Program-made: the position numbers and the translations under genes
The notes under the pieces: generated by a model
Told to the model about the DNA's origin: nothing
The model's input: the letters and a program-made list of their open reading frames with translations, nothing else
Database searches by the model: none
Part shown: positions 15,416 through 16,318 of the stretch, one piece after another
How the letters are laid out: every line of letters begins with the position of its first letter
Position numbering within the stretch: position 1 is the stretch's first letter
Origin: Nocardia brasiliensis ATCC 700358
GTDB lineage: Bacteria > Actinomycetota > Actinomycetes > Mycobacteriales > Mycobacteriaceae
Assembly: GCF_000250675.2 (NCBI RefSeq)
Contig: NC_018681.1
Coordinates: 4,897,031-4,929,030 of the forward strand
Direction of reading: 5' to 3'
DNA length: 32,000 nt

Positions 15416-16318
15416 TCAGCCCACCTTGACCTGCACGCTGATACCGGCCTTGAGGTTGTAGGGATAGGCCAGACTCGCCGCGTTGCGCGCCAACGCCAGA
15501 TAGCCGCGGCTCGACAGATACGCGACCGCCGCCCCGATTTCCCCCGCATCGGCGAAAGTCGGGCTCAGCGGCAACTCGAACGGCAGCACGCCGTCGAGGG
15601 TGATCCGCAGTTTGGTGCCGTACCCGACGCCGAGCTTCTCCAGATCGGTGCGATGAATGTTGGTCCACACGTTGCCGAACGGATGATCGATGTTGGTCAC
15701 GTACCCGACGAGGTCGTGGTCGGCGACCAGTTCGGGATCCTTCCGTTCGAATCGGACGATCTCGTCGTCGGCGAGGCGCCGCCCGACCTTCTCCAGCGGG
15801 AAGCCCGCGGCGAGATGCGCCGACGGCAGCGCGACCATCTCACGGCTGTAGAAGGTCGGCTCCGGCTGCTCCGGAATGACTTCGGGCGAAGACACCTCGT
15901 AGGCTTCCAGATACCCGTGCTCCTTGATGACCGTGGTGAGCAGGCCGTTGTTCGGTGCGATGTAGATGTAGGAACCTTCCTTTCGTTCGAAACCCGCACC
16001 CGAGCCGGCCCACTGCCCGCGGGCGCCGCCCTTGGAGGCATGCGCGATCCGCAACGCGACCGACCGCGCAGTGGTGCCGGTCGCCGGGTATGTCGTGGTC
16101 GCGAACACCGTCCCCTCGGGGAACAGCCGCGGCAGATCGACGATGTACCGTGCACCCTCCTCCACGTCCCACGGCTGCATGGTGTGGCAGATGTCCACGA
16201 TCGTGACATCCGGGCATACGCTGAGCATCAGCCCCTTGCACTGTGCCACCGAGTCGTCGGTGATGCCGAGGTCGCTCATGAAAGCGATGATTGGACGGCG
16301 ACCATTTGTTGTTGTCAC
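15416..16318 (-). CDS. flA: Fluorinase: 5'-fluoro-5'-deoxyadenosine synthase (adenosyl-fluoride synthase)
   Basis: 300 aa with a GTG start (cac 16316-16318) and GAAGGAG 7 nt upstream. Long blocks match Streptomyces cattleya FlA as I recall it: [158 protein letters not shown] and [11 protein letters not shown]. Residue numbering matches FlA (D16, Y77, T80, F156, S158). Confidence 0.95.

Follow-up and report, generated by a model that had tools for sequence, protein, structure and literature searches.

The open reading frame at positions 15416-16318 of a 32,000 bp stretch of Nocardia brasiliensis ATCC 700358 DNA (the window) raises two questions: whether it encodes a true fluorinase, as an initial annotation made from the sequence proposed, and whether the genes around it would turn the enzyme's product into a fluorometabolite in this host. 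To our knowledge fluorinases are the sole enzymes known to form a stable C-F bond, and every one of them is of interest to biocatalysis and 18F-radiolabelling.

Identity of the fluorinase gene

The initial annotation gave no strand for this gene; it lies on the minus strand, as does its loop-encoding segment discussed below:

15416-16318, minus strand: nobA, fluorinase (5'-fluoro-5'-deoxyadenosine synthase), identified by its ORF, W8JNL4 identity, TIGR04507, SAM_HAT_N/C and 1RQP
15971-16045, minus strand: codons for the NobA loop, amino acids 92-116, a 25-residue string (computed coordinates)

The ORF runs from a GTG start codon at 16316-16318 to a stop codon at 15416-15418 and encodes 300 amino acids, and translating the interval on the plus strand yields no fluorinase motifs. 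The G+C content of the window is about 60-71%, and the nobA frame has a G+C fraction of 0.83 at codon position 3 versus 0.47 at position 2, which fits a real gene in the N. brasiliensis genome. By exact-sequence look-up all 300 of its 300 residues are identical to UniProt W8JNL4 (FLA_NOCB7) and GenBank AHK61118.1, the NobA protein of N. brasiliensis ATCC 700358, so the suggestion that this is the N. brasiliensis-type enzyme, rare rather than new, was correct. The NCBIfam equivalog for adenosyl-fluoride synthase, TIGR04507, matches it with 613.9 bits (cutoff 400) over residues 15-299 and model positions 1-285 of 286; the Pfam matches, SAM_HAT_N (PF01887, 7.8e-28) and SAM_HAT_C (PF20257, 3e-13), are to generic domains only. 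In a search of solved structures, Streptomyces cattleya FlA (1RQP) aligns with NobA residues 3-298 (E=2.8e-162, 542 bits) with a single one-residue gap placed in the interdomain linker, in agreement with the collinearity that the initial annotation had claimed, and the fluorinase entries 5LMZ and 5B6I match at about 1e-154. Direct residue counts put D16 in the motif AFMSDLGIT, Y77 and T80 together within one 11-residue stretch, and F156 and S158 together within one 10-residue stretch, exactly where they had been said to be. The gene on the minus strand of 15416-16318 is, with virtual certainty, the nobA gene of N. brasiliensis ATCC 700358, whose product belongs to the conventional actinomycete fluorinases (EC 2.5.1.63).

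One rival reading is a SalL-type chlorinase, which would convert SAM and chloride to 5'-ClDA with no fluorination. SalL belongs to the same superfamily as NobA, and chlorinase structures match NobA at 1e-45 to 1e-49 (those of SalL at about 1e-47 to 1e-49). UniProt gives "Chlorinase" as an alternative name of W8JNL4, and NobA does use chloride once L-methionine is removed, 5'-ClDA being formed with chloride and L-amino acid oxidase (PMC3999930). Set against this are the bit scores, 542 to FlA versus about 165-170 to SalL; the serine at position 158, where SalL has a glycine (a SalL variant carrying Y70T and G131S, described in PMC9173684, provides the comparison for this position); a 22-amino-acid loop that SalL is without; and a gene neighbourhood that is of fl type, not sal type. 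Alignment with FlA, NobA and SalL, the check that the initial annotation had named, thus gives an FlA-like protein, identical to NobA, in which the loop and S158 are both retained. Fluorination by NobA has been shown experimentally (PMC3999930), which refutes a chlorinase-only activity, and we find that reading barely credible. Still less credible, to the point of being negligible, is a DUF62 SAM hydroxide adenosyltransferase or (R)-SAM hydrolase with adenosine as its product: Pfam assigns just the generic domains and one N. brasiliensis record does name the protein "S-adenosyl-l-methionine hydroxide adenosyltransferase", but the (R)-SAM hydrolase equivalogs NF058624 (cutoff 350) and NF053629 (cutoff 470) give 91.2 and 57.3 bits, DUF62 structures from archaea and Thermus reach only E=1e-6 to 1e-28, and NobA is without the residues required for SAM hydrolysis according to Wang et al. 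(PMC3999930).

The start codon of the N. brasiliensis fluorinase in RefSeq is probably wrong, to judge from the sequence around it. Several N. brasiliensis copies are annotated there as 287-amino-acid proteins that start at M14. A GAAGGAG Shine-Dalgarno sequence precedes the GTG of the longer frame by 7 nt, FlA shares the residues RPIIAF (8-13), and tblastn matches to NobA start at query residues 1-9 in most fluorinase loci; together these make the 300-amino-acid model preferable. The shorter product, from the ATG at 16279, would be expected to be inactive, as the first beta-strand would be missing from it.

The loop insertion

The loop string occupies amino acids 92-116 and nucleotides 15971-16045, as the initial annotation had it. 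In the alignment with SalL (2Q6I), NobA residues 9-91 correspond to chain residues 4-86 and NobA residues 112-296 to chain residues 85-268, a net gain of 22 residues in NobA between about residues 91 and 112 in alignment coordinates, that is, at the loop. The N-terminal alignments of all the non-fluorinase PDB homologues end at NobA residues 88-91, and the loop is present in all 26 aligned fluorinases (NobA and 25 homologues, see below). To this extent it marks fluorinases as had been stated, but not universally, as a loop-less fluorinase from Methanosaeta is faster than the conventional enzymes (PMC9173684). A loop of about 23 residues is thus typical of conventional fluorinases, yet it is no strict discriminator, and because an active loop-less enzyme exists, absence of the loop alone would not refute fluorinase identity.

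Distribution and conservation

Among 185,579 species-representative genomes, 25 loci encode a fluorinase homologue that is 69-99% identical to NobA. They are found in Nocardia, Amycolatopsis, Actinoallomurus, Microbispora, Paractinoplanes, Streptomyces, Streptoverticillium, Actinopolyspora, Solihabitans and Actinophytocola, in several actinomycete MAGs and in one Chloroflexi MAG; S. cattleya itself is missing among the 25. A similar set of fluorinase-bearing organisms is given in PMC9173684. Rare though the gene remains, it extends beyond a handful of organisms, and the "handful of actinomycetes" of the initial annotation is out of date. Residues D16, Y77, T80, F156 and S158 are invariant in the alignment of NobA with its 25 homologues (26/26). 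The only strongly variable stretch among these sequences is the interdomain linker, at about amino acids 193-203, a region likewise singled out by Wang et al. (PMC3999930).

The surroundings of the gene are also conserved. A nobH homologue is linked to the fluorinase gene in 21 of the 25 loci, and nobH, nobI, nobB, nobE and nobG are linked to it in many genera; the fl-type context of fluorinase genes is also stated in PMC9173684. SDR genes occur close to the fluorinase gene at 13 loci without the transaldolase gene and, like the MA37 fdr genes, may mark another fluorometabolite branch.

Published properties of NobA

The gene nobA was identified in N. brasiliensis ATCC 700358 by Wang, Deng and Qu (F1000Res 2014, PMC3999930), and the same enzyme was reported independently by Deng et al. 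(ChemBioChem 2014), as cited in PMC3999930. The recombinant 5'-FDA assay put forward in the initial annotation has already been published for the identical protein: codon-optimised nobA expressed in E. coli gave 5'-FDA, detected by HPLC and HRMS, in a reaction dependent on SAM, NaF and enzyme (PMC3999930). The native mass is that of a hexamer, the Km values are 4153 uM for fluoride and 416 uM for SAM, kcat is 0.073-0.139 per min, and catalytic efficiency (kcat/Km) is about 2.3-fold below that of FlA; the S158A change abolishes activity (PMC3999930). The gene is therefore rare yet not new. Both the enzyme and the surrounding cluster have been in the literature, and NobA in Swiss-Prot, since 2014, so that its rediscovery here adds nothing to the fluorinase field.

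The nob gene cluster

The nob cluster described by Wang et al. (GenBank KF963271) comprises the genes G, C, F, M, D, E, B, I, A and H (PMC3999930). We called genes in the window by G+C content at codon position 3, scanned them with Pfam and NCBIfam, and checked their starts against the published sizes. All ten nob genes are present and match the published nob table (PMC3999930, Table 1) in order and size. With nobA (above), the genes of this region are:

13915-15345, minus strand: nobH, cation/H+ antiporter (FlH homologue), 476 aa, ATG at 15343-15345 (PF00999 Na_H_Exchanger, 7.8e-42)
16407-17915, minus strand: nobI, S-adenosylhomocysteine hydrolase (FlI homologue), 502 aa (TIGR00936, 625 bits, cutoff 498; PF05221; Table 1 size)
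18092-18970, plus strand: nobB, 5'-FDA phosphorylase (FlB homologue, MTAP family), 292 aa (PF01048; TIGR01694, 315.6 bits, cutoff 274.85; Table 1)
19006-19581, plus strand: nobE, adenine phosphoribosyltransferase, 191 aa (PF00156; NF002636, 183 bits, cutoff 125)
19551-20555, minus strand: nobD, 5-FDRP isomerase (MtnA / methylthioribose-1-phosphate isomerase family), 334 aa (PF01008; TIGR00512, 355 bits, cutoff 279; ATG checked)
20621-22600, plus strand: nobM, 4-fluorothreonine transaldolase, 659 aa (TIGR04506, full-length, 1215.4 bits, cutoff 650)
22608-23183, minus strand: nobF, HTH (XRE) plus cupin regulator (FlF homologue), 191 aa (PF01381, PF07883; start checked)
23242-24264, minus strand: nobC, EamA-family permease, 340 aa (PF00892)
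24731-25405, plus strand: nobG, LuxR-type response regulator (FlG homologue) (PF00196, PF00072)
25406-25849, plus strand: universal stress protein (Usp) gene, between nobG and the tRNA-editing gene (PF00582, 1.5e-19)
26156-26722, minus strand: FthB-like free-standing aminoacyl-tRNA editing gene (PF04073 tRNA_edit, 1.2e-18; YbaK 2DXA, 4e-05)

The nobH start agrees with the published size and has an AGGAGG Shine-Dalgarno sequence upstream; the nobG ATG is at 24731-24733, one codon ahead of a 223-amino-acid frame. NobM has an SHMT-like domain (PF00464) and a class II aldolase-like domain (PF00596). NobC is 69% identical to S. cattleya SCAT_p0565 (PMC3999930, Table 1), which is FthC, with a role as 4-fluorothreonine exporter (PMC7162832). 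The Pfam scan of the window revealed neither a stand-alone aldolase gene nor one for an aldehyde dehydrogenase or a hotdog thioesterase (flK), and a scan for tRNA and tmRNA genes found none there.

The last two genes in the list are both absent from the 2014 nob table. The FthB-like gene lies about 750 bp past nobG, behind the Usp gene, and its start is probably the ATG at 26669-26671, which gives a 171-amino-acid protein. FthB is a fluorothreonyl-tRNA deacylase, and FthB and FthC are said to be conserved in 4-fluorothreonine loci (PMC7162832; PMC13149037). By tblastn, all 8 non-Nocardia fluorinase loci that have nobM and/or nobC also contain a homologue of the N. brasiliensis gene (56-73% identity), and none of the 15 loci without them does, the 10-kb flank of the two other N. 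brasiliensis loci stopping just short of this gene. Its distribution matches that of FthB, and its product is a putative deacylase; the likeness to FthB is drawn from the tRNA_edit domain and the co-occurrence with transaldolase and exporter genes. A candidate gene for self-protection against 4-fluorothreonine would then lie just outside the published nob boundary. Whether the Usp gene belongs to the cluster is uncertain: outside the N. brasiliensis loci L001 and L002 it has just one weak match (33%), in locus L020.

Proposed pathway

The fluorinase step itself has been established in published work on the identical protein. In NobA, S158, T80, Y77 and F156 form the pocket where fluoride is desolvated, and D16 holds the ribose hydroxyls of the bound SAM; fluoride attacks C5' of SAM by SN2 substitution to give L-methionine and 5'-FDA. 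These residue roles come from structural work on FlA that PMC3999930 cites, and for S158 the alanine mutant of NobA was assayed as well. NobB would then split 5'-FDA by phosphorolysis to 5-FDRP and adenine, which NobE may salvage, and NobD would isomerise 5-FDRP to 5-FDRibulP. An aldolase encoded outside the cluster is expected to convert 5-FDRibulP to fluoroacetaldehyde, from which NobM, with threonine, would make 4-fluorothreonine and the remote aldehyde dehydrogenase NobJ would make fluoroacetate. NobI would remove or recycle S-adenosylhomocysteine, and NobC and the adjacent FthB-like deacylase may protect the host against 4-fluorothreonine. For the steps after 5'-FDA in N. brasiliensis we infer the assignments by comparison with the homologous fl pathway of S. 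cattleya and from the matches to curated models.

Product in the host

The initial annotation held the native product and the genomic neighbourhood to be open questions, and both had largely been closed by the KF963271 cluster and by cultures with 2 mM NaF, in which fluoride was the only 19F-NMR signal (PMC3999930). Attempts at genetic manipulation of the strain were unsuccessful, the aldehyde dehydrogenase gene nobJ sits at a remote genomic site, and no homologue of flK (fluoroacetyl-CoA thioesterase) was found in the N. brasiliensis genome (PMC3999930). When we searched the literature for any later account of an N. brasiliensis fluorometabolite, we met only papers that cite the 2014 work.

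As neither a fluorometabolite nor an flK homologue was detected, the nob pathway may be silent or incomplete in this pathogen. NobA could be active in vitro while its cluster is cryptic or decaying and makes no fluorometabolite, which would leave nobA with no current physiological role. This would accord with the location of both the aldolase and aldehyde dehydrogenase genes outside the cluster (PMC3999930), and with the finding that the whole window has no match to a fluoride riboswitch or other Rfam element at E<=1. Against it, all ten nob ORFs and the FthB-like gene are intact, the nob products are 88-100% identical in three N. brasiliensis strains, and the resistance genes nobC and FthB-like are kept beside nobM, which is expected only if 4-fluorothreonine is made; the published product search, moreover, covered one culture condition (PMC3999930). 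We consider a cryptic or decaying cluster unlikely, though it deserves more weight than any other alternative considered here.

The adjoining lux-like/halogenase operon

A compact set of genes at window positions 2449-13957 adjoins nobH, immediately upstream and convergent:

2449-3453, minus strand: SDR
3417-5144, minus strand: flavin-dependent halogenase (PltA, 4.5e-16; CtcP and CmlS also matched)
5141-6226, minus strand: luciferase-like (LuxA-like) monooxygenase (best NCBIfam match luciferase alpha, 173 bits, far under the cutoff of 600)
6242-7432, minus strand: threonine-synthase-like PLP enzyme
7429-8544, minus strand: opine-dehydrogenase-like protein
8547-10076, minus strand: LuxC-like reductase
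9980-11290, minus strand: 436-aa protein of unknown type
11820-12953, plus strand (divergent): LuxE-like gene
12848-13957, plus strand (divergent): LuxD-like gene

The halogenase gene is concealed in a 1193-codon stop-free frame and carries the motifs GGGLAG, HKVGES and WVWLIP. A literature search for a LuxC/LuxE/halogenase gene cluster returned no report. We searched the 25 fluorinase loci for this operon, and only N. brasiliensis strains have it beside the fluorinase gene (two other strains were positive). It was considered as a part of the fluorinase system and rejected, since it stands next to a fluorinase in this species only, and for that reason we regard it as an orphan biosynthetic cluster of its own.

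A more elaborate scheme can be imagined in which the published nob cluster is incomplete (the FthB-like and possibly the Usp gene belonging to it) and the adjoining operon, whose LuxC/D/E-like enzymes are of acyl-activating and acyl-reducing type, acts on a fluorinated intermediate, so that the end product is an undescribed halogenated metabolite and not plain fluoroacetate or 4-fluorothreonine. If true, such a metabolite would explain the absence of known fluorometabolites in N. brasiliensis. The restriction of the adjacency to this one species argues for coincidence, and we regard the scheme as very improbable.

Comparison with known systems

The protein encoded in the window is identical to NobA (W8JNL4, KF963271), and the order and sizes of the flanking genes are those of Table 1. 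SalL of Salinispora tropica (2Q6I, 6RYZ) has its fold family and its SN2 chemistry on SAM in common with NobA, but it is without the 22-23-residue loop, has a Gly at the Ser158 position and is unable to form C-F bonds (PMC9173684). The Methanosaeta sp. enzyme FlA(PtaU1) makes 5'-FDA, is loop-less and faster, and has about 50% identity with conventional fluorinases (49.5% with the FlA-MA37 reference) (Pardo et al. 2022, PMC9173684); NobA, unlike it, is of the conventional loop-bearing type. S. cattleya FlA (1RQP and 11 further PDB entries) has the same loop, the same catalytic residues and the same numbering as NobA up to the interdomain linker, and the two proteins are 79-81% identical (PMC3999930). 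The linker, at about amino acids 193-203, is divergent and one residue longer in NobA, so that D210 and N215 of FlA are D211 and N216 of NobA. The two hosts differ in the arrangement of their genes. In S. cattleya we take the transaldolase, fthB and fthC genes to lie apart from flA, an assumption drawn partly from the Table 1 accessions of PMC3999930. In N. brasiliensis, unlike S. cattleya, the transaldolase gene, the fthB-like gene and the fthC homologue are clustered with nobA.

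Genes at the boundary of the nob cluster

Just outside the published boundary of the nob cluster lies a free-standing aminoacyl-tRNA editing gene of the YbaK/INS type:

26156–26722, minus strand, YbaK/INS-type editing gene (probable start 26671)

Its homologues accompany fluorothreonine transaldolase/exporter genes in all eight of the other genera that have them, and are found at none of the 15 fluorinase loci without such genes. The gene is a likely orthologue of FthB, the fluorothreonyl-tRNA deacylase. The scan of genome contigs that supplied these comparisons found at least 25 fluorinase loci; this count is a lower bound, since S. 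cattleya, the type fluorinase producer, is missing from them even though its fluorinase, FlA, contains exact copies of several search peptides.

Between the LuxR-type regulator gene nobG and the editing gene is one further reading frame, whose first base immediately follows the nobG stop codon:

25406–25849, plus strand, universal stress protein (PF00582, 1.5e-19)

Beyond the other N. brasiliensis loci (L001 and L002), its only match is a weak one (33%) at locus L020.

Fluorinase start and the NobM C-terminus

The start of nobA differs between databases. RefSeq gives a 287-aa product from an ATG at 16277–16279 (minus strand), and GenBank and UniProt give 300 aa from a GTG at 16316–16318 (minus strand); the GTG is favoured by the Shine-Dalgarno sequence in front of it and by residues 8–13, which are conserved in FlA.

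The transaldolase NobM ends in a class II aldolase-like domain:

20621–22600, plus strand, nobM (aldolase-like domain, amino acids 515–654)

This domain weakly matches models of fuculose-phosphate and ribulose-1-phosphate aldolases. The nob cluster does not encode the pathway's 5-FDRibulP aldolase.

The adjacent orphan operon and SDR genes

The following features include an operon that is next to the fluorinase in N. brasiliensis only:

2449–13957, orphan operon
2049–2366, plus strand, ORF of 105 aa
3417–5144, minus strand, flavin-dependent halogenase
9980–11290, minus strand, ORF of 436 aa
29085–31208, minus strand, ORF of 707 aa
31250–31924, minus strand, ORF of 224 aa

All four ORFs have coding-type GC3; none matched Pfam, and the 436-aa product, encoded within the operon, had no NCBIfam match either. 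Other products of the operon resemble LuxC, LuxD, LuxE and LuxA, the last being a luciferase-family monooxygenase, with every score far under the equivalog cutoffs. The rest are the halogenase, an SDR (2449–3453), a PLP enzyme similar to threonine synthase and a protein similar to opine dehydrogenase. A literature search for this gene combination returned no match.

At 13 loci (L004, L005, L009–L012, L015–L018 and L023–L025), 11 of which are without nobM, there are SDR-family genes no more than 10 kb from the fluorinase; they are 31–38% identical to that of the window. These genes may be signs of another fluorometabolite branch downstream, or their presence may simply follow from the general abundance of SDRs.

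The halogenase gene, concealed within a 1193-codon stop-free frame, is about 10 kb from the fluorinase and represents a second, mechanistically unrelated halogenating enzyme. It carries the motifs GGGLAG, HKVGES and WVWLIP, and its matches include PltA (4.5e-16), tetracycline 7-halogenase and CmlS.
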